From IMG/VR virus record IMGVR_UViG_3300042400_000593: a DNA stretch of 64,000 nucleotides; one strand, written 5' to 3'. Each line of letters opens with the position of its first letter. The stretch's first letter is position 1. The DNA comes from a virus (taxonomy: Duplodnaviria > Heunggongvirae > Uroviricota > Caudoviricetes). The position numbers and the translations under genes are program-made. The notes under the pieces were generated by a model. It worked only from the letters and a program-made list of their open reading frames with translations. It searched no databases and was not told where the DNA came from. Positions 833-18,619 of the stretch are shown here, piece after piece.

Positions 833-2581
833 TCACATTGGGGCTGCAGCACCGCCCATTGGTGCTGCTGGCGGCATACCTGAACCCATACCGCCCATAC
901 TTGCATCTAAATCCATCCCCATATCGGCAGGTGCAGAAAGATTTCCTGCCATTCCTAAATCGCCTTCCATCCCTGCGGCAGATAAACCTGCGCTACGAAG
1001 TTCTCCAGCAGCATCTGTATGTGTAGGTTGTCCTTTACCTTGCTCTTCGCCCCATAATCTTTCGTTTTCGGCTATTTCGTCTTCGTTTAAACCTAAGAAT
1101 CGTTTAAGGGCAAAGCGTTTACTCATATACGGAACTGTTTGAATAGTGTTAAATGTATTAATTCTTTCTGAATCTAATCCTGCTTGGCGTGCGCTTGCAA
1201 AATTTAAAGGAGGATTAAATGATAATTCAAATAAATTAGAGTCAATATTTGTTCCTCTTGAGTACATATACATTTTAAATTCGTCTGTAAACACTTCTGT
1301 AATTAAACTTTGTAATCGTTCGCAGTATTTGTTAAAGCGTAACTCTTGAATATATGCTGTACCAACACGTCCATCATTAAAACTTGCTTGACTATCGTCT
1401 GCACCTGTTGGCAAGTAACTACTTGGAATACGTAAACCACGGAATAATTTGTTTGTAAAGAATTTTAAGTCATCAATTTCGCCTAAATTAGTGCCACCTG
1501 GTAGGGTTTCGACTTTAGAACCACGACCTTCTGCAGTTTGAGGAAAGAAATAGTCTTCATTGATTGATAAAGGGTTGTACGCACTGTCAATTACATTCTG
1601 TCCGCCACCACTTTGACTTGGAATTCTACGCTGATGAATCTCATTTTTAACTCTTTCTACAAACGCCATGGCTAAATGACTCGGCATATTACCTACGTCA
1701 ATATGAAATACTCGTCTTTCTGGTGCTCGTTGTATACGATAAATTAAAATAGCATCTTCTAAAAGCTCTTTTTGTTTGTAAACTTTGAAAATATTCTCTA
1801 ATAAACTATTACCAAATGGGTAATTGTTATCTAAACCTTCAGAAAGTGATAAGTGAACAATGTGTTCAGCATTAATTGCGTGTTCGGTTTCAGCTAAACC
1901 AAATCTAGATCCGCTACTTGAACTAGGAAACGGCCCAGAAGACCCACGTTGAGCACCAGGTGCGCCCATATATCCTGCACCGGATGTCATACCTCCGCCT
2001 GCTTGTCTTGGATTAATGTTAGGTGTAATCTGCGTAACAACTAAGTTTTCAAAGTTAGGGGCTAAGTCTTTAATAATATATTGTTCTGGTTTCTTCCCAT
2101 CGCTTTCATTTGCAATGATTTTAATTATTTTACTGTTATCAATCCAGTTCCATTTTTGAGTTTCTGGGTCTCTAATAAAGAAAGCGTCACCGTATTTGAA
2201 TACATTACGAACAATACGGAAGATTTTGGTATCAAATTGCTGTAATTTATTCCATTGTTGTAAGTATTCGCCTAAAATTCGTATTTCTGAGTTAGTACCT
2301 TTGCTATTCCATCTAACAGTAAATGGACTTTTACCATCTTTTAGCTTTTGTGTACAAAATTCAGCAAGAATATCTAGTGCTGCATTAATTTCTGGATCAC
2401 TATCCATTACTTCATATTGCTGATAACGCTCTACACGGTTAGGACTACCTGTATAAACGTCAGGTAGGTAACTAGAATAGTTAGTTCTAGCTGGACCTGC
2501 TTTAGAATTTTGAGTTGTATTCGAAGAACGATTATGTTCATAGTTAACATCAACCGGTGAAAAGTGTTTTCGCCATGTCAT
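833..2581 (-). CDS. gp20: Portal protein (T4 gp20-like)
   Basis: gp20-type motifs: YEVMDSDPEINAALD, LEDAILIYRIQRAPERRVFHIDVGNMP, EDYFFPQTAEGRGSKVETLPGG, ELRFNKYCERLQ. Confidence 0.95.
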   Translation of the reverse strand: MTWRKHFSPVDVNYEHNRSSNTTQNSKAGPARTNYSSYLPDVYTGSPNRVERYQQYEVMDSDPEINAALDILAEFCTQKLKDGKSPFTVRWNSKGTNSEIRILGEYLQQWNKLQQFDTKIFRIVRNVFKYGDAFFIRDPETQKWNWIDNSKIIKIIANESDGKKPEQYIIKDLAPNFENLVVTQITPNINPRQAGGGMTSGAGYMGAPGAQRGSSGPFPSSSSGSRFGLAETEHAINAEHIVHLSLSEGLDNNYPFGNSLLENIFKVYKQKELLEDAILIYRIQRAPERRVFHIDVGNMPSHLAMAFVERVKNEIHQRRIPSQSGGGQNVIDSAYNPLSINEDYFFPQTAEGRGSKVETLPGGTNLGEIDDLKFFTNKLFRGLRIPSSYLPTGADDSQASFNDGRVGTAYIQELRFNKYCERLQSLITEVFTDEFKMYMYSRGTNIDSNLFELSFNPPLNFASARQAGLDSERINTFNTIQTVPYMSKRFALKRFLGLNEDEIAENERLWGEEQGKGQPTHTDAAGELRSAGLSAAGMEGDLGMAGNLSAPADMGMDLDASMGGMGSGMPPAAPMGGAAAPM

Positions 2582-2604: not shown

Positions 2605-5600
2605 TTATCCCAACAAATTACCCGATAAACTTTTAGTTGCTCTAACTTGTTTATGACTATTACTGCTAATAGTATCGGCATGTTGAACCATCTGTATCAT
2701 AGTCTTATTTAACTGTAATAGTGAATCATGTAAATCTTTTAATGTTGTCTCGTGTGCTACCGGTGCAGGTGTTGCAGGTGGCGGCGTAACTGGTTTTTCT
2801 GGTTCTGGTTGTTTAACAGGTTGTGTAGGTTTAGGTGGTTCTACATCTTTCTTTGTTAATACTGCATGATCTGATTTTACGTCTTTAATTGATGCATGCG
2901 ATTGTTTTACTTCTGCTGAAACTCTAGAATTATAGTCATTAAACGTTTCTAATCCAAACTTTTTGTACATTTCTTTAATATGCGCTTGCTCTTTTGTTTC
3001 TGCAGGCTTCTTAAGTTCAGGTTTAGGAGGTTCAACTTTAGAGTTATCGTTAATATTAGCAGGTTCTGCAGGTTTTTCACTTTCGACTTTAGGTTTTTGT
3101 TTGTAATAACTTGAATGTTGTCTATTAAGCTCTGCAATACGAGCTGCAGTTGCTTCTGGACTATGATCTATTTTACCTATTCCTTCTTGAGACCGTTTTT
3201 CTGAAGCAGCTAGTTCTTCTGGTGAAATTTCTTCGTATTTTACATTACCTTTAGCAAATGATGGCTTGTTATCACTCTTAAATAATCCAGATATAGACGA
3301 ACCTACATCACTAAACGTGTCTGTTATACTATCAAAGAACCCTTTTTCTTTAGGTTCTTCTTTAGTTGGTTCATACCTTATAGCAGTATCTTCTAATTTT
3401 GGAATACTTGCAGGTTTAATAGTAGCATCTAACGATTTAAAAGAACTTCCAAGCTGATTACTTAATTCTTCAAATGCTTTAGGTTTAACATCAGGTTTTA
3501 TACTTTCAGTGGACGGTAGTTCTTTTTTAGATCCACTGCTATAAATCACCATTTCTTTCTCAGCAGTTGTCATTTCTTTAATAGACTTATCAGTTACTTT
3601 AGATTTATCAGTTTTTTCAGGTTCTTTTGCACCGTGCTCCTTCATAAACTTCTTTTCGGCTTCTAATGCTTGCGCAACTTGGTTTGCATGAGCTTCTTGA
3701 GCGGTTTTATTTTTAATTTCAGCATGTTTAGCTTCTTCTTCAGCATGAAGTTTTAATTTACCTTTAGTTTTGATTAAATCATCTTCGTAACTGAGTGCTA
3801 TTTTTGCAACTTCTTCTTTTTTCTTAGCTAAACGTTCTGCAGCTTCGGCATTTGGCTTAGTATTAGCTGCTTTCATTTGTTCGTAGTCAAAAGATGCGTT
3901 TTCTAATGCTTCTCTTTTCTTTTGTAACGCCATTCTTGCAGCAGATGGGCCTAATTTGTCTTCAGCAGCTTTACCTGAGTCACTAAGATCCATCTGTGAC
4001 ATACCAATTTTAGAAATATCACCAGAATTCATTGATTGTTTAAACTTAGCTAAGTTTATTAAGCTTTCGTCTAACTTTGAAACATCTGGAGCTTTAGGTT
4101 TAGGTAGTGGAGCAATTGTAGTTTTAGGTTTTTCAGCATTTGCTATTTTAACTTCAGTTAATGACCCTGATACTGCTTTGCCTAGGTGTTCAAAATTCTG
4201 ATGTAATGCAGTAATAGCCGATTCTTCTAGAGACTTAGGTAGTTTAATTGCATCTAGATTAGGAGTAGTAATTTTTGGTGGTTCTTTAGGGGTAGCTGGT
4301 TTAATAAGTTTGTTAAATTGTTCTCCTAATTGTGCAATAGATTGTTGTTCTACAAACTTAAATTGATTTTCAGCTGGTTTTACTTCTGCTTTAGGTGGCT
4401 CAGCAGGTTTTACTTCAGCTTTAACCTCTGCTTTAGGTGGCTCAGCAGGTTTTACTTCGGCTTTAACCTCTGCTTTAGGTGGCTCAGCAGGTTTTACTTC
4501 GGCTGGCTTAGTTTGAGGAGTTGCTTTTTCAATTGCTTTAGTAACAGTTTCGTGCATTTCTTTTGCTTGTGGAGCAAATGTAATATTTTTAAATTTTTCA
4601 GCAATATCAGTAAACTGTTTAGCAACATTTTTCATTTCAGTATTAATATCTGTAAATGTTTTACCTAATTCAGTTAATTGCGGAGCAGCAGGTACTGTTT
4701 CCGATGTGGTTGTAGGAATTTTAATATCAGTAGTACTTGGAGATGGTGTTTTTGCTTGTTTTTGATCAGCTGATGCTACACCAGGTGGCATCATTTGCTG
4801 TACAAACCGTTTCATTTGATCTTCATTAGCTACAATTTCGTTACCATGAAGTTCTGCAAGCTCACCTTTTGGATCAAAGTGCGTAAACATGTCTTTAAAT
4901 CCGCCACCACCTGATAAGAATTTTTCAAAGTCAGGAGTTCCGTCAGCAAAATGATACTTAACTGGAGATGCACCTGTTTGTTCTGGAGTTAATGTTGGAG
5001 TGTTTTTATGTGCTTCAATAGCTTTTTGATGAGCAGTAGATAACGGAAGTGATGCTTTAAATCCATCAGTAATTTCCTTAGCCATGTTACCAGGTGTAGC
5101 TTGTTCCTGTGTTCTAGGTCTAAGTGCATTATTAATACCATCAAAAGTTCCAATTAGTTTATTACCACTGTCAACTAGCCCACCAAACATTTTAGATGCA
5201 CCTGCAGACATGTCTTTTAATGTGCGATCGGCTTTGTTTAGTGTAGTATCAAGCTCTGCACCTTTAAATTTTTCACCTTTTTCGTCTAATCCTTTTTGTG
5301 CATTATGAGCTTCTTCACGAATCATTCGTCTAGCAGTAGCTTCGTCGATATTATTACCTTTATTTCTCTCTTCATCAATTTTTGTTTGAATCTGAGGTAA
5401 TTCTCTATTGTTTGTTTGTGCTTCGATTGCTCGTTGTGTAACACCGCCTGAGCCATATTGCACCATATCTTTAAAGCCATCAGAATTTTGCCATCTATCA
5501 ACAGCTTCTAATGCTTTTTGCATTTGGATCTGTGCTGCAGCTTTTTGTTCTGGAGTGTTTGCAGATTTCATTGCTTCTGCAGCTTTTTGCAATTCTGGAC

Positions 5601-6540
5601 CAGCGTCGCCCATTGCAGCCATAGATTCTGCGCCTTCTTTAGTACGCAAACCGCCTGTGAACGTTTCTTGGAATACTCGTTTAGCAGCTTCTGGCATGCC
5701 TGCCATGTCTTGCATGGATTCATTAAATCTATTACGAGCATCTTTGTCTAATCTTGATAATGCAACTTGGACAACTGCATCTTCATTACGTTTTCTTAAA
5801 TCATCTTCTTGCGCTTTCCTACTTAAACCAGTTATTCGAGTAGTTTCATCCATTGCTGCGGTCATTCGAATAGCAGAATCGATTGCAGCATTTTTAGATT
5901 CAATATCTGACATGTCAATACCGCGTTGACTGCCCATTGCTGCTTTAGCTACCTCAGTAACGTCTTCAGTTTGAAGTCCAAATTCTTTTAATTTGTCAAC
6001 TACATCAGATTCTTGTAAACCTTTAGTAAATTCTAAGAAGTTTACTTGTGATCGGTTCATAGTTGAACCTAAACCATTTAGTTCAGTTGCATTTCTTTTA
6101 AGAATATCACCGTATTCTTCATGTGTTAACCTTGCACCTTTAACTAACCGATCCATGTCAGCTAAATTATTATTAAAGTTAGATCCGTATTCACCAAATT
6201 CAGTATTCTTTTTATGTGCATCAAGTACAGAGTCGCCAACTTTTTTGGTTAAATCACCTAAAGTTTTACCTAACAAGCCCCCATTGTTCTGTAATGCACC
6301 GGTAAGTACATGAAATCCGTCTGCTACTTTTGCACTACCTTCCCATACATTTTTAAGAGCACCGGTTGTTGCGCCTACCATGTCTACAAATCTATCAACT
6401 ACGCCTGAGCCAGAGTTTGAACCTTGCGAGATTGGTGTTCGAGGTGCAGAGCTAATTCCGCCACTACCGCCTCGACCGTTAAGTTGTCTAGTAAGTCCTT
6501 CTATCGCTTCAGTAAGTCGTTCTGTTTCTGTTTGAGCCAT
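2605..6540 (-). CDS. Tape-measure-like protein with a long low-complexity C-terminal half
   Basis: 1311 aa. The N-terminal ~500 aa are helical and Ala/Gln/Glu-rich, followed by an FADG...ELHGNE motif seen in tape-measure C-terminal regions. It is adjacent to the hub/chaperone-like genes. Confidence 0.65.
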   Translation of the reverse strand: MAQTETERLTEAIEGLTRQLNGRGGSGGISSAPRTPISQGSNSGSGVVDRFVDMVGATTGALKNVWEGSAKVADGFHVLTGALQNNGGLLGKTLGDLTKKVGDSVLDAHKKNTEFGEYGSNFNNNLADMDRLVKGARLTHEEYGDILKRNATELNGLGSTMNRSQVNFLEFTKGLQESDVVDKLKEFGLQTEDVTEVAKAAMGSQRGIDMSDIESKNAAIDSAIRMTAAMDETTRITGLSRKAQEDDLRKRNEDAVVQVALSRLDKDARNRFNESMQDMAGMPEAAKRVFQETFTGGLRTKEGAESMAAMGDAGPELQKAAEAMKSANTPEQKAAAQIQMQKALEAVDRWQNSDGFKDMVQYGSGGVTQRAIEAQTNNRELPQIQTKIDEERNKGNNIDEATARRMIREEAHNAQKGLDEKGEKFKGAELDTTLNKADRTLKDMSAGASKMFGGLVDSGNKLIGTFDGINNALRPRTQEQATPGNMAKEITDGFKASLPLSTAHQKAIEAHKNTPTLTPEQTGASPVKYHFADGTPDFEKFLSGGGGFKDMFTHFDPKGELAELHGNEIVANEDQMKRFVQQMMPPGVASADQKQAKTPSPSTTDIKIPTTTSETVPAAPQLTELGKTFTDINTEMKNVAKQFTDIAEKFKNITFAPQAKEMHETVTKAIEKATPQTKPAEVKPAEPPKAEVKAEVKPAEPPKAEVKAEVKPAEPPKAEVKPAENQFKFVEQQSIAQLGEQFNKLIKPATPKEPPKITTPNLDAIKLPKSLEESAITALHQNFEHLGKAVSGSLTEVKIANAEKPKTTIAPLPKPKAPDVSKLDESLINLAKFKQSMNSGDISKIGMSQMDLSDSGKAAEDKLGPSAARMALQKKREALENASFDYEQMKAANTKPNAEAAERLAKKKEEVAKIALSYEDDLIKTKGKLKLHAEEEAKHAEIKNKTAQEAHANQVAQALEAEKKFMKEHGAKEPEKTDKSKVTDKSIKEMTTAEKEMVIYSSGSKKELPSTESIKPDVKPKAFEELSNQLGSSFKSLDATIKPASIPKLEDTAIRYEPTKEEPKEKGFFDSITDTFSDVGSSISGLFKSDNKPSFAKGNVKYEEISPEELAASEKRSQEGIGKIDHSPEATAARIAELNRQHSSYYKQKPKVESEKPAEPANINDNSKVEPPKPELKKPAETKEQAHIKEMYKKFGLETFNDYNSRVSAEVKQSHASIKDVKSDHAVLTKKDVEPPKPTQPVKQPEPEKPVTPPPATPAPVAHETTLKDLHDSLLQLNKTMIQMVQHADTISSNSHKQVRATKSLSGNLLG
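4381..4505. repeat. 42-bp tandem repeat, about 3 copies, encoding KPAEPPKAEVKAEV
   Basis: The unit ctctgctttaggtggctcagcaggttttacttc(a/g)gctttaac is visibly repeated. Confidence 0.9.
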
Positions 6541-6604: not shown

Positions 6605-7429
6605 ATGGCACAAAATCCTTTACAACAATATTACAGACAACCAAAAATTTATATTCCATTGCCTTCAGGCGGCATTTATAATAAACTTGGAAGTTTATCA
6701 GGTGATGCAACCCACATGCCAATTTATAGCATGACTGGTATGGATGAAATTATTGTTAAAACACCTGATGCATTAGTATCGGGGAAAAGTACAGTATCGA
6801 TTATTGAAAGCTGTTGCCCAAATGTTAAAAACGGTTGGGAAGTAACATCATTAGATACTGATTTATTGTTAGTTGCAATTCGTATTGCAACATTTGGGAA
6901 TATTTTAGAAATTACAAATGTATGTGATAAATGTGGAACAGAACACGACTACGATGTAGACTTAACTACAGTAGTTAATCATTTTGCACAGTGCAAATAT
7001 GATAGTGTTATTGAGTATAATGGATTGATTATTAAATTACAACCGTTAACTTATAAACAAACTACTGATTTTTCAATTCGTAACATGCGTTTACAGCAAC
7101 ACTTATCAGCAGCTGCAGCTCAATCAGCTGATGAACAGAAAAAGATTATTGAGGAGTTATTTAAAGACTTAGGCGCATTACAAAACGACATTTATTCTGC
7201 TAGTGTTGAGTCAGTTGATACTGGAACAGTTGTTGTAACCGAACCTAATTTTATTTACGATTGGTTAACAAACTGCGACAAAGATGTATTTGATAAAATC
7301 CGCGAGCAATTTAATAAAAATAAAGACGTTTGGAGAGTTCCAGATGTTAAAGTTAAATGTTCGTCATGTGGTCACGCTGCTGAATTGTCAATCGATTTAG
7401 ATCAATCAAATTTTTTCGCAGCCGCCTAA
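6605..7429 (+). CDS. Baseplate hub assembly protein / tail assembly chaperone (T4 gp26-like)
   Basis: NPLQQYYRQPKIYIPLPSGG start, TSLDTDLLLVAIRIATFG, CDKC and CSSC Cys pairs. SD GGAG precedes the ATG. Confidence 0.7.
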   Translation: MAQNPLQQYYRQPKIYIPLPSGGIYNKLGSLSGDATHMPIYSMTGMDEIIVKTPDALVSGKSTVSIIESCCPNVKNGWEVTSLDTDLLLVAIRIATFGNILEITNVCDKCGTEHDYDVDLTTVVNHFAQCKYDSVIEYNGLIIKLQPLTYKQTTDFSIRNMRLQQHLSAAAAQSADEQKKIIEELFKDLGALQNDIYSASVESVDTGTVVVTEPNFIYDWLTNCDKDVFDKIREQFNKNKDVWRVPDVKVKCSSCGHAAELSIDLDQSNFFAAA

Positions 7430-7471
7430 TTAGAATGTCATATAACGAAATTGTTAATTATCTAGTTAGGC
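7411..7471 (+). promoter_or_regulatory. Candidate -1 programmed ribosomal frameshift signal
   Basis: Slippery T_TTT_TTC (7411-7417), a 6-nt spacer, and an 11-bp stem (GCCTAATTAGA 7424-7434 / TCTAGTTAGGC 7461-7471). The -1 frame is open into ORF 7435. Confidence 0.75.
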
Positions 7472-7650
7472 TTGTAAACGAAATTAAACAATTTAAACTT
7501 GAACTTTATAGGTTATGTTGGTATATGCGAGGTGGTGTTAATATTAACGATCTTCTGTATACTCTAGGATCAGAAGATCGCGATATTATGTATGATATTG
7601 TTAAAGACAACATTGAATTAACTAAAGTATCAAGGATGCCGCTACTTTAA
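7435..7650 (+). CDS. Small gp51-like / gpT-like helical domain, probably expressed as a -1 frameshift extension of 6605..7429
   Basis: LCWYMRGG...EDRDIMYDIVKDNIE motif. No SD before the ATG; in the -1 frame relative to the upstream ORF. Confidence 0.7.
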   Translation: MSYNEIVNYLVRLVNEIKQFKLELYRLCWYMRGGVNINDLLYTLGSEDRDIMYDIVKDNIELTKVSRMPLL

Positions 7651-8490
7651 GTGCAATTGGCCATCTGGACCTCTTACAACTCTATCTAAAGAAGTATACG
7701 CACTATCATCTGTTGATGCTACAATTTGTTTCATTTGAGATGGGTCGAGTTTTTTCTTTGGAGGTTCAGTTGGTGTTTTCGGTTTAATAGTCCATGGATC
7801 GTTTGGATCTGTTGCAGACGGATCAACTGCATCGTTTGTAGATGGTTTTGCATTTGGGTCTGCAGGAGTAGTTATATCATGATAACCTTGTTCTACATGT
7901 TGTTTTGCCCATTCAAATCCTTTCTTAAACATTTCAATTATATCTGATCCGTAACCAGGAATATCTTCCATGTGTATGTTTATTAGTGGACTTGCTAATA
8001 AATTTGCGATAGCAATTCTTCCTGCATCTGATGATAACCATAACATAGCAGCAGATTGTACAGCTGGCCCTAGGACTTTAAATAATCTTCCAATTAATGG
8101 ACCTATTATAGGTATAAATCCAAATAGCTCAGATAATAAAAATATACCAACTTCGCCCATGGATAATGTTCCAGCAATTGCTGCTAATTCGGTAATTAAG
8201 TAACCACGTTCTATCTGTCTTCTTTGTTCAAGCTCATCTGGTTTATCTTTTAATTTACTTTCCCATTGTTCCATATTTAAAAAATAATCAGCAATTGGTT
8301 TAACAAAGATCACACTGTATGTTGATTTTTTTAACAGGTTCATGTATCTATCAACTGTGCTAAGTGCAGATCCTGTTCCGGTTGCATTCCTTAAACGACT
8401 TGCTCCAGCTGCTAATGCGCTATCGAGTGATTGACCAAATGTAGGTGCTTCATAAAGATTTGCTGGTGTTATAATTTCTCGAATTTTCAT
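7642..8490 (-). CDS. Hypothetical protein with a hydrophobic central segment
   Basis: 282-aa ORF starting MKIREII; hydrophobic stretch LAAIAG...IFLLSELFGFIPIIGPLIG; late motif AATAAATA at 8534-8527. Confidence 0.75.
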   Translation of the reverse strand: MKIREIITPANLYEAPTFGQSLDSALAAGASRLRNATGTGSALSTVDRYMNLLKKSTYSVIFVKPIADYFLNMEQWESKLKDKPDELEQRRQIERGYLITELAAIAGTLSMGEVGIFLLSELFGFIPIIGPLIGRLFKVLGPAVQSAAMLWLSSDAGRIAIANLLASPLINIHMEDIPGYGSDIIEMFKKGFEWAKQHVEQGYHDITTPADPNAKPSTNDAVDPSATDPNDPWTIKPKTPTEPPKKKLDPSQMKQIVASTDDSAYTSLDRVVRGPDGQLHLK

Positions 8491-9579: not shown

Positions 9580-9733
9580 AGTGTTTTGTTAGATTATATT
9601 GTGTTTAGTATTTTTAAACAAATATTTATCTGAACAACTTCTCCACCTTGTTAGAAACGATTATACAGTCATTAGTATCAAAAGTCAACTGCTATTATTA
9701 CCAATGGTAAATATACACAATATAGGAACACAT

Positions 9734-11419
9734 ATGAAAGTTACTGACATTTTAAAAGAAGAGTCTGAAGAAGAAATTAATCAAAATCGCGATAAAATTT
9801 TAGGACAGATACCTGCTGAATATACTAGTAAAAATTCACTTTATCAAAGCTGGAGGAAAGTAGTTGCAGGAGCACACAGACGATGTTGGTTTGCTAACGC
9901 TAAATCTGTTCAAGAAAGAACTCCATTAAAACTAAGTCGTGAATTTAATGTAACATATCAATATCTATGGGATTTAGTTAAGGTGCAACAATGGAAATGT
10001 GCAATTACTGGTGAACCATTAGCTCCGATCGGTAATAAAGATGATAATAATCGAATAAGTATTGATCGTATTGATTCAACTAAAGGATACATACCTGGTA
10101 ACATTCAATTTATTACAGCAAGAAGTAATTTAATGAAATGGACACATGATCAAAATGACTTTGTTAAGTATTGTCAGCAAATTGTTAGTTACACTAATAA
10201 GAATGGAATACCGTATGATCCTGCAGATCAATCGACTAAATTAAAAGAAGCATACATTAAACAACCACCGAGCATTTTAAGAACATGGAAAAACAAAAGT
10301 GGTCCATTACATTATTTTTTAACTTCACCTACTAATGAACCATTATATGCAGATTTAGCTGCTAAAATACCGTGGCGTAGTAAAACTGGATCTACTTTTG
10401 AAAAGATGTTTCTAACACCGCAAACTGCAGCTACTTTGCTTAATTGGGTTAAATTAGGAGATGCTGCTTACAGAGAACAAAATATTCCTGAGTTAAAAGA
10501 AATTAATTCTAGATTACTTATAGTAATGGGAAAATGTATCTCATCGGCTAGTAGTCAACTAGAACAAGGAAAGTATCCCGAAGAGCTAGGTGTACCAAAA
10601 TCTGTATTAGCATCTCTTAAGAATTTTAAAATTGCATTGCAAGATCTACATGATGGCAAAAAAATGATTCTTACAAAAAAAGCAGGCGAATCACAAACTG
10701 ATGGTAGATACATGACACAAATAGAACGTAAACAGTTTGAAGATTACATGTTACAAATTGATCAGTATTTACAAAACCGCCCTTCTTATGAGCAAGCAAA
10801 AGCTCTTTATGATCAAGTAAGACATCATATTGATAAAATTACACGACGTACCCTACAGAATACTGCACAAGGTATAACTCCTGCACAATTTCTTGCAAAT
10901 CAACTAGCGTCATCAAAATTTGATGTAGTAGATGATGATCGATTTACATCTAGTGATTTTGCAGCGTTAGATCCTCAACTTCAAAAACGCATTACCGCAC
11001 AGCAACAACGAGGAGCAATGCCAGATGAATGGGATAGATCAAAACCGGAACATAGATCGTGGAAAAAGGTTTTAAATAATGCTTTTACACGTATTTTGTC
11101 ACGCTCAAAAAAACGTGAAGAAACTGGTAAAACCGCGTTAGATCAACATAAGTTTAATGCTAGTAATGAAGAATTATGGAAAGTAATAAATGACCAAAAT
11201 TGGACATGTCCGTATACTGGAAACAAACTAGAAGCTACTGGAGAAGGTTCTGATAACCAACTTAGTCCAGATCGTATTAACTCAAGTTTAGGATATGTTT
11301 CGGGTAACATACGATTTGTTACTTACAGAGTTAACATTATGAAAGGGGATCGATCATCGGCGGATTTTGTAAACAGTTGTAGACAAATAGTAGCTAATCA
11401 AAAATCTAAGAAACCTTAG
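9734..11419 (+). CDS. Protein with two EndoVII/HNH-like (DRID-type) domains
   Basis: Likely start MKVTDILKEE at 9734 (SD AGGA). Duplicated domains: CAITG...SIDRIDSTKGYIPGNIQFITARSNLMK and CPYTG...SPDRINSSLGYVSGNIRFVTYRVNIMK. Confidence 0.75.
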   Translation: MKVTDILKEESEEEINQNRDKILGQIPAEYTSKNSLYQSWRKVVAGAHRRCWFANAKSVQERTPLKLSREFNVTYQYLWDLVKVQQWKCAITGEPLAPIGNKDDNNRISIDRIDSTKGYIPGNIQFITARSNLMKWTHDQNDFVKYCQQIVSYTNKNGIPYDPADQSTKLKEAYIKQPPSILRTWKNKSGPLHYFLTSPTNEPLYADLAAKIPWRSKTGSTFEKMFLTPQTAATLLNWVKLGDAAYREQNIPELKEINSRLLIVMGKCISSASSQLEQGKYPEELGVPKSVLASLKNFKIALQDLHDGKKMILTKKAGESQTDGRYMTQIERKQFEDYMLQIDQYLQNRPSYEQAKALYDQVRHHIDKITRRTLQNTAQGITPAQFLANQLASSKFDVVDDDRFTSSDFAALDPQLQKRITAQQQRGAMPDEWDRSKPEHRSWKKVLNNAFTRILSRSKKREETGKTALDQHKFNASNEELWKVINDQNWTCPYTGNKLEATGEGSDNQLSPDRINSSLGYVSGNIRFVTYRVNIMKGDRSSADFVNSCRQIVANQKSKKP

Positions 11420-12307: not shown

Positions 12308-13036
12308 TTACAATTTTAATTTACAGTTGTCGCCGTGAAACAGAGTATAATGATTTTTTGCAATCGTCTTGTTACAATGCTCGCATGTTCGTTGATGTTT
12401 AGGTTGTTTCATCGGATTGTTATCTCCTGAATTTTTTAACTTGGACATTTGTTTATTATATTCAGATGCAGATTTTCCATACATTGGATTTTTTTCGCCT
12501 TTTAATCCTACTTTAGGATTTCCTTTTAATGATTTACTTATATTTTCATTATGGGTCGCCGGGCGAAATTCTGCATAATTTTTAACACCATTGCTTTGTT
12601 TTTGTTTAACTTCTGAAGAGTGCTTTTTTCCAAAGTGTGGACTTAATTCACCTCTTTTACCGTACATAGGATTTTTATCTCCTTGCCTTGCTAAACCTTT
12701 CTTTGCACGAGTTATTTCTGACTCAATTCTACCTAATCTATTTCCTGGATCAATTTTAGCATTTGATTGATTAAAACTCATAGGATCGTTTTTAGCATCT
12801 AAAATTGTAAGGTAATCAGATTCTAATTTTCTTATATATGATGCAGGACCAATTGCTAAGATTTCATATCTCCAGTCATTTCTATTTTCTAAAATTAACG
12901 GCTTTACTATTTTACTTGAACACAGGTAATTCTCATGGCAAGCTGGATTCCACCCAGCTTGCGTTTTTGATCCTATATACCATTTATTAGTAGGTATGTG
13001 AATCCACTTGTAAAGGTACGGTATTGACTGTTTCAT
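12308..13036 (-). CDS. GIY-YIG-like homing endonuclease with NUMOD3-type repeats (Seg-like)
   Basis: YLYKW...KWYIGSK, and NPMYGK / HFGKKHSSE repeats; free-standing, directly downstream of gp46. Confidence 0.8.
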   Translation of the reverse strand: MKQSIPYLYKWIHIPTNKWYIGSKTQAGWNPACHENYLCSSKIVKPLILENRNDWRYEILAIGPASYIRKLESDYLTILDAKNDPMSFNQSNAKIDPGNRLGRIESEITRAKKGLARQGDKNPMYGKRGELSPHFGKKHSSEVKQKQSNGVKNYAEFRPATHNENISKSLKGNPKVGLKGEKNPMYGKSASEYNKQMSKLKNSGDNNPMKQPKHQRTCEHCNKTIAKNHYTLFHGDNCKLKL

Positions 13037-14796
13037 TGTATAGTTGGATAATCGTAATTCGTAAAACCGTTTTCTTTGTAAACTCGCAATATGTTGTCTA
13101 CTCGTCCAATTAATTCTTCTTTATGACTAATTAACCAAATTGACGAATCTGATTGTCTAGCTTTAGCTTTTAAGATTGACAACGCACACTCAATGCCGTT
13201 CGAATCAAGCCCGTTGTCTAACAATTCGTCAACAAACAGTAGGTTAATTTTTTGATATAAGCTTTCCCATACATCTCGAAAAGCTAAACTTAACGAAATA
13301 ATAACTCTATTCATTTCTCCTCTTGAAAGATTATGAAAATCTAAGTCTTGTCCTAATTGTGTGATTTCAACACTTAAATCGTTTTGGAATACAACATTAT
13401 GCGGCAATCCCATCTTATCTAAGTAGTGAGTTAATCGGTTATTTAAGTATGCTAAGTTTTGATCTATAATCTTTTTACGGATAAAACTGTCTTTGTTTGT
13501 TAGTAATTTAAGCAAAAACTCCTGATGATCTTTGAGTGCATTTGCTTCATTAATAGTGTCCCAAACAATTTCTTGCAATGCAGCATTGCGTAATTCGTCA
13601 ACTTGTTCTTGATATGGATCAGTCTCGACTGCTTTAATTTCTAATTGTTGTTCTAATGATTTAAAGTTAGTTTGATGTTTTAATGCGTCTTCTAGTGTTT
13701 CGTAATAGGTGTCCGGACGCTTTTCAATTACTACAAACTTACTTAATTCTTCACAGATTTTAGTGTGATCTGCTAGTACTTTATCATAATATTTCTGTGC
13801 TTCGAGCAAATGTTGTGTAGCAGTTTCTAATAATTCTTCATGTTTATGATCATGCAAATCTTGGTCACAAGCATGACATTTTTTATTATCTAATGAATCG
13901 ATTTCTCTAACATATTTGTCTCTTGTTTTAAGAGCTTGAGTAGTTGCAGATTCTAATGTTGCTCTTTCTTTGTTAAGACTCGTCATTGTTGCACGTTGAT
14001 CTAAGTATTCTTTTAACAATGCATGATTGGCAATTTCAGCTTCGATATCTACACCTTCCATCTCTACGATAGCACGAGCGAGTTTTTCTAAGTCAGTTTC
14101 TTGTTGACTATACCATGCTTTTTGTCTTAATAATAACGTATCAATGCTCTGTTGAATCTTCTCATTTGACTTTTTAGCAGCTTCAATGTTAGCAGTTTCT
14201 TGATAAATTGTATCTTTAGTTTGTCTAATTAGTTCTTTAAGTGCTTCAGCTTTTTCACTTAGTAATGTAATACCTAGCAGTTGTTCAATGATCTCACGTT
14301 GATCATTTGCTCTCATTGATAAGAACGGTTCTGTATAAGTGTTTAATGCGACAATATGTTTAAACATATCATGACTCATACCAAATAAATGATGTAAGTC
14401 TTTCTGTGTCTCACGCATATCGCCTTGTGCATCATCGGCTAAAACTTGAGATTCTTCGTTAACAAAAAACTTAAGAACAGTTGGTTTACGACCACGTTCA
14501 ATGCGATAAGTGTTACCGTCCTTTTCAAAAGTTAAGGTAACTAGCATGTTTTTATTGTTAATTTTATTGATTAAATTGTCTTTTTTAATGTTAGTAAGAG
14601 CAGTACCGTAAAGCGCATAACTCAATGCGTTTACGATAGTTGTCTTGCCTGTACCGTTTCTAGATCCAGCGTCATCACCGCCTTGATCTAAGTTTTCTCC
14701 TAGTACAAGTGTTAAGTTTTCTTTCTCAAAATCTACAGCTTGAGTTTGATTCCCTACACTCATAAAATTCTTTACAGTTAAATTTTGTATTTTCAT
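13033..14796 (-). CDS. gp46: Recombination endonuclease ATPase subunit (T4 gp46 / Rad50 / SbcC)
   Basis: KNFMSVGN, Walker A NGTGKTT, coiled coil with CHAC zinc hook, LSRGE signature, Walker B LLFVDELLD, LISH. Confidence 0.95.
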   Translation of the reverse strand: MKIQNLTVKNFMSVGNQTQAVDFEKENLTLVLGENLDQGGDDAGSRNGTGKTTIVNALSYALYGTALTNIKKDNLINKINNKNMLVTLTFEKDGNTYRIERGRKPTVLKFFVNEESQVLADDAQGDMRETQKDLHHLFGMSHDMFKHIVALNTYTEPFLSMRANDQREIIEQLLGITLLSEKAEALKELIRQTKDTIYQETANIEAAKKSNEKIQQSIDTLLLRQKAWYSQQETDLEKLARAIVEMEGVDIEAEIANHALLKEYLDQRATMTSLNKERATLESATTQALKTRDKYVREIDSLDNKKCHACDQDLHDHKHEELLETATQHLLEAQKYYDKVLADHTKICEELSKFVVIEKRPDTYYETLEDALKHQTNFKSLEQQLEIKAVETDPYQEQVDELRNAALQEIVWDTINEANALKDHQEFLLKLLTNKDSFIRKKIIDQNLAYLNNRLTHYLDKMGLPHNVVFQNDLSVEITQLGQDLDFHNLSRGEMNRVIISLSLAFRDVWESLYQKINLLFVDELLDNGLDSNGIECALSILKAKARQSDSSIWLISHKEELIGRVDNILRVYKENGFTNYDYPTIQ

Positions 14797-15806: not shown

Positions 15807-16032
15807 TATTTCCTGTTGATTCGTGTTTTAATAAAAACCAAACTAAATCTTTGTTTGTGTTAAATGTAACTGTACCGCTAGACATGCTATCAAACTTTAT
15901 ATTGCATTTGTAAGTTTCTTCAAATAGTTTTTCAATATGTGTATAGTCGGTGTTAGGGTGTTCTTCTTTAAGTTTTTTATATGCATCATCGAGTGCAGGA
16001 TGTGCTATATCCAGTGTATTATTCATAGTCAT
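15799..16032 (-). CDS. Small hypothetical protein
   Basis: 77-aa ORF tightly coupled to both neighbours. Confidence 0.6.
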   Translation of the reverse strand: MTMNNTLDIAHPALDDAYKKLKEEHPNTDYTHIEKLFEETYKCNIKFDSMSSGTVTFNTNKDLVWFLLKHESTGNNE

Positions 16033-17783
16033 TATTTTTTTAATTTAAATACTAGTTGTCCGCAGTCCCAAACTTTAAAAAACCCGTTGTTTTCCATATT
16101 TTGTGATGCAGTTAATGTGTTATCAAATGTTAATAGTTTGTGTTTCATTAAGTGTTTTTGCCATTGATACCGTGAACCTGCATACTTTCCGGATTTATCA
16201 ATATAAAAAAATCCTGGTGGTGATGTAGATTCTAACGTAAATCCTAATTTGTAATAAACATTACCAGTGCTATAACGACGATTGCAATACGACAGTAATA
16301 CATCATTGGGTTCCATATAACATTTAACAAAATGTTTAATAAGTTTACTTGCGCCGCCTACTACTTGCAACCCCGAGAATGAACATAATCGTAATAGTTC
16401 AAATGTATTAGTGGCTTTAGTAAATCTTGGCTTACCAAACGTTGCAACCATAATTAATCTATTAGTAGTATCGTACAGACCTAGGTTAATTAAACTGTTA
16501 ACGTCTCCCTGCAGGTGATGAGTTGATATAAACTGTGCCTTCTCAGCTGAATTAACTACTTGCAGGTTAGTGTGCCTTGCGTATAATTTAGAATGTAGCC
16601 CTAATCTGCTATCAATTAAATTAATAGTTTGTTCCCATTTTTCATTAATTTCTGTATCCCAAAATTGTAATAATGCAATGTTTTGTGATATACATGCATT
16701 AGTTTTTTGTAAATGATACATCTGTGTTTTGTTATACTGTTCTGAATGAAAATAACATCCGTTAATTTCTATTGCTAAATTATAGTCTGGAAAATATAAA
16801 TCTAATTCTTTAGGTGAAATTATAGTTCTATTATTCGTAATTATTTTAACACCTTTTTGATCATAATGCAAGTATAATCTTCGTTCTAATTCACTTGCAG
16901 AATGCCGGACGATATTAATATTTAATGAATGAAAAATTTTGCATAGTTGACTAGAACTAATACCTATATCATTAGCAATCTCGTGTACAGTTTTACCTGA
17001 ATGCTGTTCATTTTCTAGCCAAGATGCGTTTGTAAGTTTTTCTAATGTATCTGCAGAAAAATAGTGTTCTCGTTTAGTAGCAACGCTTTTTTCTCGTATA
17101 CTTGCATTACTTAGAGGATTAATATAACCGTATTTAATAATGTTAGTATCTTTAATTTGTTGTTGAATATCTAAATTTAGTAACGGATTAGTGCAGCCGT
17201 ATCTAATAAGATTCGTTTCTTTAATTTTAGATTGAACATTATAATTTTTTGCAGGATTATCAAAGCCGTATTTAATTAAATTAGTATTTTTAATTTTTTG
17301 CTTAGTCTCTGATAAGTGCATAACATGTGATACATTATATTTTTCTAAATTAGAAGTAATAACACGTTGTTTGTATTCGTCAGTTTGAGAATAATGGTCA
17401 ACACCGTATTTTTCTAAACTAGTAGATTTTACTTTAGTTTTCCAATCGTTGGTTTGAGTGTGCCATTCGACACCAAGAAGTTCTAAATTCTTTTTCTTTT
17501 TTATAACAGTAGAATAAGTTGCAGTGCATTTTGGACTGCAATATGCTCGGTATTGTTGTAAATCTAAATGCCAACTTAACTGGTTACTGCATTCACAACA
17601 CGGAATTACAAGTGATTGTTGTTTAATATGATAAATTATTTGTCTAGCATTTGTACTAGACAATAATGTAGAAATTTGTGATATTTGTTCAGCATACGGT
17701 GTTTTTAATAATGCTGTGTAAGACAGGCGAGGTCGCCTGTCTAAATCCGTTAATGTAGTTAAAATTTTTTGATATTCAATCAC
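16032..17783 (-). CDS. Hef-like putative homing endonuclease (Zn finger, KYG repeats, PD-(D/E)XK domain, GNAT-like C-terminus)
   Basis: CCEC...CSPKC, five 22-aa KxTNLxKYG repeats, ELDLYFPDYNLAIEINGCYFH, and ELLRLCS...GGASKLIKHF...GNVYYKLGF. Confidence 0.75.
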   Translation of the reverse strand: MIEYQKILTTLTDLDRRPRLSYTALLKTPYAEQISQISTLLSSTNARQIIYHIKQQSLVIPCCECSNQLSWHLDLQQYRAYCSPKCTATYSTVIKKKKNLELLGVEWHTQTNDWKTKVKSTSLEKYGVDHYSQTDEYKQRVITSNLEKYNVSHVMHLSETKQKIKNTNLIKYGFDNPAKNYNVQSKIKETNLIRYGCTNPLLNLDIQQQIKDTNIIKYGYINPLSNASIREKSVATKREHYFSADTLEKLTNASWLENEQHSGKTVHEIANDIGISSSQLCKIFHSLNINIVRHSASELERRLYLHYDQKGVKIITNNRTIISPKELDLYFPDYNLAIEINGCYFHSEQYNKTQMYHLQKTNACISQNIALLQFWDTEINEKWEQTINLIDSRLGLHSKLYARHTNLQVVNSAEKAQFISTHHLQGDVNSLINLGLYDTTNRLIMVATFGKPRFTKATNTFELLRLCSFSGLQVVGGASKLIKHFVKCYMEPNDVLLSYCNRRYSTGNVYYKLGFTLESTSPPGFFYIDKSGKYAGSRYQWQKHLMKHKLLTFDNTLTASQNMENNGFFKVWDCGQLVFKLKK

Positions 17784-18619
17784 TCGTAATCCTCTGATCT
17801 TCGCATTGCTACCTCATATTCTTCTGAACCTGTTCTAGTATACGACGGATTCATTCCATTCATTTCTAAAATATCGTCTCTAATATTCTGATTGCGCTTC
17901 TCTATATTTATAACTCTTACGAACGAATTGGTAACTGCAGCAGTAAAGTATGCAAATGGATTATCTGATTTAGATTCGTCAAATTGTAATCCAATTTGTG
18001 TTAGTTGTAATATTGCCTGTCCACGCATTTCATCGTTGTAGGTATAACCTCTAACATTACCTCTAGTAGCATAACGTTCACAAAGTTTAATCATCATACG
18101 AGCTAACGTATCAGTAATTTGTCCTGCATTTTTATCAAAATGCCCAGTTTCTAAGTCTCCCCTCCAGTGGCTTTTACCTACACATACAAGTTCGTCATCT
18201 ATAAATTTCCAATGTTGAAACGGCGGAAAATTAACTTTTTCTCTTCTATCTGCTTCTGTTTTTGGATTTTTCTTTCTTACTGAATTAAGAGGAATATGAT
18301 CGTAAGTCATAATTCTAAAAACTACATTTTCTTTTGCAATTTTTTTATAATCAACTTCGCAGTCAGCTTGTTTAATCTTTTCGCCGCTGCTTTTTCGAAT
18401 AGCGTAGTCTAAATCGCCTATTCTTTTTGCTTGATTTCGTTTAGCTTCTGCGATAGTGCGGATGTTTATCTTATCTAAGCTAGGTAAAATTATATCATAT
18501 TGGTGAAAAGATTTATCTGTAAACACACAGTAAGAGCTTTTTGATCTGTGTATTTCTAACAGCATATCCTTGTTGTTTAAGTAATTTACTTTTGGTGTAA
18601 GCATTGTTCGTATCTCCAT
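17780..18619 (-). CDS. gp55: Late-transcription sigma factor (T4 gp55-like)
   Basis: YLNNKDML, GYTYNDEMRGQAI, FDESKSDNPFAYFT...SFVRVINIEKR. Confidence 0.85.
   Translation of the reverse strand: MEIRTMLTPKVNYLNNKDMLLEIHRSKSSYCVFTDKSFHQYDIILPSLDKINIRTIAEAKRNQAKRIGDLDYAIRKSSGEKIKQADCEVDYKKIAKENVVFRIMTYDHIPLNSVRKKNPKTEADRREKVNFPPFQHWKFIDDELVCVGKSHWRGDLETGHFDKNAGQITDTLARMMIKLCERYATRGNVRGYTYNDEMRGQAILQLTQIGLQFDESKSDNPFAYFTAAVTNSFVRVINIEKRNQNIRDDILEMNGMNPSYTRTGSEEYEVAMRRSEDYE

Follow-up and report, generated by a model that had tools for sequence, protein, structure and literature searches.

Among the features taken as hallmarks of long-tailed phages is programmed frameshifting in their genes for tail assembly, and to our knowledge no T4-type counterpart has been described. 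For phage lambda, gpG/gpGT and the conserved -1 frameshift of the tail assembly chaperone genes were reported by Levin et al. (1993) and Xu, Hendrix & Duda (2004), as cited in the review PMC5009743. In a review of the T4 tail, gp26 and gp51 are listed as chaperones of hub assembly, and gp51 is absent from particles (PMC3004832). As reported, the "gp51" of cyanophages and marine vibriophage is about 20% of the T4 length and matches only the T4 C-terminus (Sullivan et al. 2010, PMC3037559). In this study, we analyzed the window, the whole 64,000-nt stretch of DNA taken from IMG/VR record IMGVR_UViG_3300042400_000593, and found a slippery heptamer, a downstream stem and an open -1 frame at the end of its gp26-like gene. 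Judged from sequence, the only gp26/gp51-family gene of this phage very probably carries a programmed -1 ribosomal frameshift site at its 3' end, and the short and long products of the gene would correspond to T4 gp26 and gp51, respectively.

Slippery heptamer and open -1 frame

The locus comprises the following elements, in which ORF denotes an open reading frame.

6605..7429, plus strand: gp26-like baseplate-hub assembly gene (ORF1), 274 aa, PF12322 and phrog_150, with the stop codon TAA at 7427-7429
7411-7417, plus strand: slippery heptamer T_TTT_TTC, in X_XXY_YYZ phase with the zero frame and lying on the invariant C-terminal Phe-Phe
7418..7423, plus strand: 6-nt spacer from heptamer to stem, of equal length in 10/10 members of the window clade
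7424..7471, plus strand: putative stimulatory hairpin, an 11-bp stem (7424-7434 with 7461-7471, one G-U) and a 26-nt variable loop
7411..7650, plus strand: -1 frame extension, 79 codons, with the stop codon TAA at 7648-7650; gp51-like tail of the predicted long form
7435..7650, plus strand: ORF2, 71 aa, in the -1 frame of ORF1
7435..7437, plus strand: ATG used by gene callers for the 71-aa ORF, 5 nt past the zero-frame stop and not conserved

The product of 6605..7429 matches the Pfam family PF12322 (T4_baseplate) with an E-value of 2.2e-15 and 57.4 bits against a curated cut-off of 24.5, and it also matches phrog_150, "baseplate hub". A six-frame search of the 372-kb genome gives one PF12322 gene only (56.5 bits). 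The protein carries two CxxC pairs, the zinc-ribbon cysteines, together with a C-terminal Phe-Phe. When it is aligned with T4 gp26 and the jumbo-phage homologues, C110, C252, C255, F270 and F271 are invariant; within the window clade, the invariant cysteines are C107 and C252, with C110 and C255 almost invariant. In the AlphaFold2 (AF2) model of the short form, with a predicted local distance difference test score (pLDDT) of 85 and a predicted template modeling score (pTM) of 0.79, the last seven residues, including the Phe-Phe, are disordered. In the record of another phage, fHe-Yen9-04 (locus L023, 689-1564), the gp26-like gene is misnamed "Lead, cadmium, zinc and mercury transporting ATPase".

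Positions 7409-7429 read ...AAT TTT TTC GCA GCC GCC TAA. The codon starts of ORF1 equal 2 mod 3, which places the heptamer in phase. To compare this junction, we assembled 33 loci: 17 isolate jumbo phages, one 595-kb uncultured phage, 4 IMG/VR contigs, 9 metagenomic relatives whose proteins are 56-88% identical to that of the window, and KVP40 and S-PM2. They span RaK2-like phages, 121Q, PA5oct, XacN1, Atu_ph07, SCTP-2, the 595-kb uncultured phage, KVP40 and the cyanophage S-PM2. The pattern NNT_TTT_TTY lies on the invariant Phe-Phe in 33/33 loci. The residue before Phe-Phe can be any of eight amino acids (S, N, H, D, A, R, G or T), and the third base of its codon is nevertheless T in every locus, against a background of 38%. 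Similarly, the first Phe codon is TTT throughout (33/33 versus 70% background), and the second is TTC in 29 loci and TTT in 4, contrary to the local preference for TTT. Collectively, these synonymous-site constraints across the 33 loci indicate that the heptamer is conserved beyond what the protein requires. The zero frame stops 1 to 21 codons past the heptamer, and the tails that it encodes are not conserved. The most divergent case is the uncultured 595-kb phage LR756511 (locus L022, 2238-2462), where the heptamer lies 63 nt upstream of the zero-frame stop within GGG_TTT_TTC_TTC; its gp26-like body has 346 aa, and a strong GC-rich hairpin (-23 kcal/mol) follows downstream.

A break of this kind might also arise from a homopolymer error in sequencing or assembly, or from a recent frameshift mutation that split one gp51-like gene, since T runs are error-prone in some sequencing chemistries. 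However, the identical break is present in 33 loci from isolates and metagenomes and from many sequencing groups, and independent contigs from four other freshwater runs keep the T run intact without indels. In addition, the 120 homologues listed out of 1808 are all of short-form length (232-289 aa), and none of these 120 is a fusion of about 350 aa. By these 33 independent loci and the indel-free contigs, sequencing error is excluded, and artefact or decay as a whole is extremely improbable.

From the heptamer, the -1 frame reads FFRSRLIRM and meets no stop until the TAA at 7648-7650, so that a slip here is predicted to yield a product of 269 + 79 = 348 aa. An earlier sequence-only reading of this DNA had proposed the in-phase heptamer, the open frame running into an ATG at 7435 without a Shine-Dalgarno sequence, and products of 274 and 348 aa from a gp26-like and a gp51-like reading frame. 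Each of these points stands, including the ATG context, as no GGAG-type Shine-Dalgarno was found in the 20 nt before it. The same reading had anticipated a conserved terminal Asn-Phe-Phe; the Phe-Phe, the heptamer and the open -1 frame held in all 33 loci, but the residue before Phe-Phe varies as described above. No locus lacks the heptamer or has an early stop in the -1 frame, which stays open for 59-82 codons. The extensions are collinear and homologous in 22 distant and 9 close loci, and their translations align from the heptamer on almost without gaps, with the consensus FFRxxLLxxxPEEI...Y..G...Y..L.NM...ERD. ORF2 has no Pfam or PHROG match.

The extension could instead be a gene of its own, in which a 71-aa gp51-like peptide starts at ATG 7435 by termination-reinitiation past the TAA at 7427-7429. 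In that case, the conserved Phe-Phe and an ordinary overlap of genes would account for both the -1 relation and the T run. The closeness of this ATG to the stop would suit such a gene, as would the ATGA and TAATG overlaps of Phosso and 121Q, which are typical of coupling, and the small ORF is annotated as a separate gene in public records. The start codons, however, do not behave as those of a conserved gene would. In diverse loci, the potential starts are scattered from codon 4 to codon 37 of the extension. None of the 75 codons of the PA5oct extension is ATG, GTG or TTG, and PA5oct is thus the cleanest case for a trans-frame product. In RaK2, the first start is at codon 33, and both in RaK2 and in one IMG/VR relative, at least a third of the conserved sequence precedes the first start. 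Even in the window clade (n=10), just 4/10 members keep the ATG, at codon 9; a further member has TTG there, and in 5/10 the first start of any kind is at codon 39. Because the starts vary in this way, gene callers give no ORF2 or only a 41-aa stub in most window-clade contigs. Moreover, the conservation of the protein reaches back to the heptamer, across the zero-frame stop, and separate genes would leave unexplained the invariant T before Phe-Phe and the choice of TTT-TTC. T4 gp51 further shows the tail working as the C-terminal part of a gp26-like body, and the ATG at 7435 has no Shine-Dalgarno sequence. Such a pattern is expected of a recoding site, and a small gene with its own start hardly accounts for it. 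In the window phage, a small amount of free peptide may still come from independent initiation or reinitiation; this cannot explain the family-wide pattern, and we consider two separate genes unlikely.

Annotations of the extension differ among the reference genomes. In PA5oct (locus L013, 1534-1758) and RaK2 (locus L005, 3322-3540), the conserved -1 extension is wholly unannotated, and in phAPEC6 (locus L024, 3437-3646), the extension ORF is misnamed "RIP and coiled-coil domain-containing 2".

The extension and the T4 gp51 tail

In T4, gp26 has 208 aa and gp51 has 249 aa. Residues 1-201 of gp51 match the whole PF12322 profile and are followed by a tail of about 48 aa, which is listed as PF28602 in precomputed annotations. 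Therefore, gp26 and gp51 are paralogues that differ by this tail. We compared the extensions with gp51 by hhalign. When profiles of 20 extensions and of 19 gp51 proteins were compared locally, columns 42-74 of the former matched positions 223-255 of the latter (E 4.5e-4). Against a gp51-tail profile, built from tails cut at the VFKLL motif together with the KVP40 and S-PM2 extensions, the extension profile aligns from its first column, with FF matched to VF/FF, through to its end, with an E-value of 1.7e-5 and a probability of 78%; the reversed control gives an E-value of 0.18. Global alignment of 22 conceptual trans-frame fusions to the gp51 profile reaches an E-value of 7e-10 and a probability of 96.5%, a score that comes mostly from the shared PF12322 body. 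For the structure of the long form, a natural gp51-type protein was modeled in place of the window fusion, and in its AF2 model (pLDDT 91), the tail forms four confident helices. Collectively, the alignments indicate homology between the -1 extension and the tail at the C-terminus of T4 gp51.

The short "gp51" ORFs of KVP40 (KVP40.0327) and S-PM2 (S-PM2p208) prove to be -1 extensions that follow T_TTT_TTC in single-copy gp26 genes. Together with the tail homology, this makes gp26-like and gp51-like the right labels for the two frames. T4 itself serves as a negative control. Its gp26 ends EFFELL-stop with the Phe-Phe encoded as G_TTC_TTT, and the -1 frame is closed two codons on; the gene after 26 is 25, and gene 51 is divergent.

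Downstream stem and proposed slip

The stem is the minimum free energy (MFE) structure of the region downstream of the heptamer, at -14.5 kcal/mol and z = -3.1, and 2/200 shuffled sequences fold as well. The 11-bp stem with one G-U pair and the 6-nt spacer, both drawn in the sequence-only reading, are thus borne out by folding. The inner TAACG/TGTTA helix of the same reading is part of the MFE structure, but it lies within a loop that varies among the relatives. RNAalifold predicts the same 11 pairs for 10 relatives, with the stem starting at the same +7 position. In the 10-member clade, standard pairs occupy 97.3% of the sequence-pair cells, compared with 20-60% when the 3' arm is slid, and the 26-nt loop is far more variable than the stem. 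One pair shows a compensatory change from A-U to G-C (loci L033 and L034, one event), and five stem pairs show one-sided, wobble-compatible changes. Covariation foreseen for the stem is therefore seen in the clade to this extent. Hairpins that begin at +7 or +8 are frequent in the wider family (PA5oct, XacN1, Xoo-sp13, two IMG/VR loci and SCTP-2). A contig from another freshwater/lake sample carries the natural variant G7465A, by which the lone G-U of the stem becomes A-U, along with T7443C in the loop.

The same fusion could be encoded by a fraction of the mRNAs if RNA polymerase added one U in the U6 run, and homopolymer runs can cause such transcriptional slippage (PMC5009743). The product would be identical. 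However, the run is only six T long in 29/33 loci, where it is capped by C despite the 70% preference for TTT, and longer runs would be expected. Efficient bacterial transcriptional slippage usually requires runs of 8-9 or more. Slippage by the polymerase would also not call for a run that is always in X_XXY_YYZ phase, nor for a hairpin whose 6-nt spacing is conserved in the clade. We therefore regard transcriptional slippage as very unlikely.

We infer the slip, its efficiency and the roles of the two forms from these elements. In the programmed frameshift that we propose, most ribosomes would read NFFAAA-stop and release the 274-aa gp26-like protein. With both tRNA-Phe on UUU_UUC and the ribosome held by the hairpin 6 nt downstream, a minority would slip back one base onto U_UUU_U. 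The slipped ribosomes would go on for 77 more codons in the -1 frame and produce the 348-aa protein, whose helical C-terminal tail would be the equivalent of the T4 gp51 tail. One gene would thereby give, at a fixed ratio, both factors that T4 encodes as 26 and 51. If T4 gp26/gp51 and the expression logic of lambda G/GT are taken as guides, the two forms might serve in the assembly of the hub and the tape-measure complex.

Several observations weigh against such a frameshift. U_UUU_UUY is less shift-prone than A_AAA_AAG in Escherichia coli (PMC5009743), and thus its efficiency may be low; low shift-proneness would fit a low ratio of long to short form. The ATG 5 nt after the zero-frame stop makes some reinitiation possible in the window. 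Additionally, both arms of the stem encode conserved -1-frame residues, so part of the stem conservation acts at the protein level, and the compensatory pair represents a single evolutionary event. Finally, a stable downstream structure is significant in only 7/22 diverse loci and weak in the enterobacterial RaK2-like phages; therefore, the hairpin appears to be lineage-specific and not a universal part of the signal. As far as these alignments and folds indicate, the universal element is the heptamer, and the stimulator is lineage-specific.

Genomic setting and comparison with known systems

The genome of the window is that of an uncultured freshwater giant phage, recorded in IMG/VR at 372,016 bp with direct terminal repeats, and its DNA recurs in lake and freshwater metagenomes. 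A blastn search of the frameshift region against the phage collection gave no match, a related-locus search with the window gp26-like protein as query found none, and single-protein scans yielded only the 4 IMG/VR loci. Around the gp26-like gene lie a portal gene, a 1311-aa ORF, and RNase H and endonuclease VII-like genes. The first two are located as follows.

833..2581, minus strand: portal gene, neighbor of the gp26-like locus
2605..6540, minus strand: 1311-aa ORF, probable tape-measure-like virion protein, divergent from the gp26-like gene; context only

The order of portal, large virion protein and gp26-like gene is common to RaK2, 121Q, XaC1, Phosso and phAPEC6; it is not kept in Atu_ph07, XacN1, Xoo-sp13 and RAS14. 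The 1311-aa neighbor has no Pfam or PHROG match. Its homologues are virion proteins by mass spectrometry (MS), and its RaK2 homologue is annotated as similar to tape measure. Its matches by language-model features in the atlas are mostly tape-measure clusters (score 0.91), which serves as a lead only. A search with the T4 tape measure gp29 gave no match in the window's genome, a result that is uninformative in either direction. With the RaK2 annotation note and the language-model features as leads, the divergent neighbor is probably a tape-measure-like protein. The published virion MS lists of CBB and phAPEC6 contain the large neighbor and lack the gp26-like protein.

Several other ORFs of the window were observed. 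A convergent 282-aa ORF (7642-8490, minus strand) overlaps the final 9 nt of the extension frame and has a weak DUF6601 match under the cut-off (E 8e-4); its position is conserved in close relatives, where it has 268-304 aa. A 606-aa ORF with a TTG start (9599-11419, plus strand) carries two endonuclease VII/HNH-like matches, at residues 112-200 and 477-602. The endonuclease VII of relatives has about 160 aa, and the 606-aa ORF may be a duplicated or fused nuclease. Two homing-endonuclease-like ORFs lie at 12308-13036 and 16032-17783, both on the minus strand. The former is directly downstream of an SbcC/gp46-like gene (13033-14796), and the latter abuts the late sigma factor gene (17780-18619). 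Because the SbcC/gp46-like gene covers only positions 296-952 of the 967-position profile, this recombination nuclease gene may be interrupted.

In the full-text literature open without subscription, we found no published frameshift in gp26/gp51 or in these jumbo phages. The word "frameshift" is absent from the genome papers of RaK2, PA5oct, the 121Q-like phages, XacN1, Atu_ph07 and CBB, and public records either annotate two genes or miss the extension. Frameshifting of the -1 type is known in phage tail-assembly genes; new here are an unrelated protein family and the T4 lineage. If the proposed site is real, T4 relatives from cyanophages and vibriophages to 600-kb giants would gain such a system, in a family unrelated to the known chaperones. 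Hundreds of annotated genomes, which now lack the long form and carry a "short gp51" or a hypothetical small ORF in its place, would need correction. The frameshift would also account for the marine "gp51" without about 80% of the T4 protein, which was noted as a puzzle in 2010. Furthermore, since it is probably the short-to-long ratio that counts, the frameshift would offer a direct handle on how the hub factors gp26 and gp51 work in T4.

Compared with T4, ORF1 of the window belongs to the same family, PF12322, with the same zinc-ribbon cysteines and C-terminal Phe-Phe, and the extension starts at the position equivalent to VF/FF. In contrast, T4 has two paralogous genes on opposite strands and no slippery heptamer, while the window's genome has one gene. 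The jumbo-phage extension is also about 25 residues, an extra helix, longer than the T4 tail. KVP40 and the cyanophage are closer in arrangement: each has a single PF12322 gene whose terminal Phe-Phe is encoded with T_TTT_TTC, and the -1 ORF, 59-62 codons in length, is homologous to the C-terminus of gp51. However, in their records and in PMC3037559, the small ORF is taken for a gp51 gene in its own right that happens to be unusually short, with no frameshift annotated or discussed, and the window differs from them in its longer extension (79 codons) and its own hairpin.

The E. coli dnaX gene, which encodes tau and gamma, shares a bacterial-type -1 shift with a heptamer, a downstream stem-loop at 6-nt spacing and two products per gene. 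It differs in using A_AAA_AAG with an upstream Shine-Dalgarno-like stimulator; its shifted frame meets a stop codon immediately, and thus the short product is the one made by shifting. In the window, the shifted frame lengthens the protein, and no upstream Shine-Dalgarno-like element was seen.

The likeness to lambda G/GT lies in a -1 slip that is only a few codons away from the stop codon ending a gene for tail assembly, and in two products with the same N-terminal body, of which the short one is the major form and the one extended at the C-terminus is the minor form. A tape-measure-like gene is also adjacent to the gp26-like gene. Unlike in lambda, the tape-measure-like 1311-aa gene of the window is divergent, not downstream and co-oriented. 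The PF12322 family moreover has a zinc ribbon, and the T4 factors act on the baseplate hub. No tail-assembly-chaperone family is among the Pfam or PHROG matches at E-values up to 0.1. Foldseek searches of the PDB with the short-form and gp51-type models gave no match at E <= 0.001, and VIA-align wide returned generic helical-hairpin matches only (Z <= 8.2). These comparisons gave nothing specific; no solved structure appears to represent the fold of the family, and neither by sequence nor by fold was a link to the known tail assembly chaperones seen. Of the G/GT chaperone equivalence raised in the sequence-only reading, the expression logic is retained by analogy, and no membership by sequence or fold was seen. 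In a G/GT-type system, the short form binds the tape measure, the extension binds the tube protein and both stay out of the virion; here, the evidence on this point is indirect and consists of the missing gp26-like homologues in the virion MS lists of CBB and phAPEC6 and the absence of T4 gp51 from particles (PMC3004832). The parallel with lambda holds for expression logic and not for family membership.

As a tentative extension of this parallel, which we hold to be possible but somewhat less probable than its opposite, the gp26/gp51 frameshift may be an unrecognized T4-superfamily counterpart of lambda G/GT. The two families would be unrelated and would share, by convergence or from ancient times, the design of a short and a long form at a fixed ratio. 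Handling of the tape-measure or hub protein would fall to the short form, and the gp51-type tail would bring in the partner for the next step of assembly. The ancestral state would be one frameshifted gene, from which the T4 pair would have come by a later duplication. Such a counterpart would explain both why gp51 acts "catalytically" in T4 and why the "gp51" of cyanophages looks truncated.

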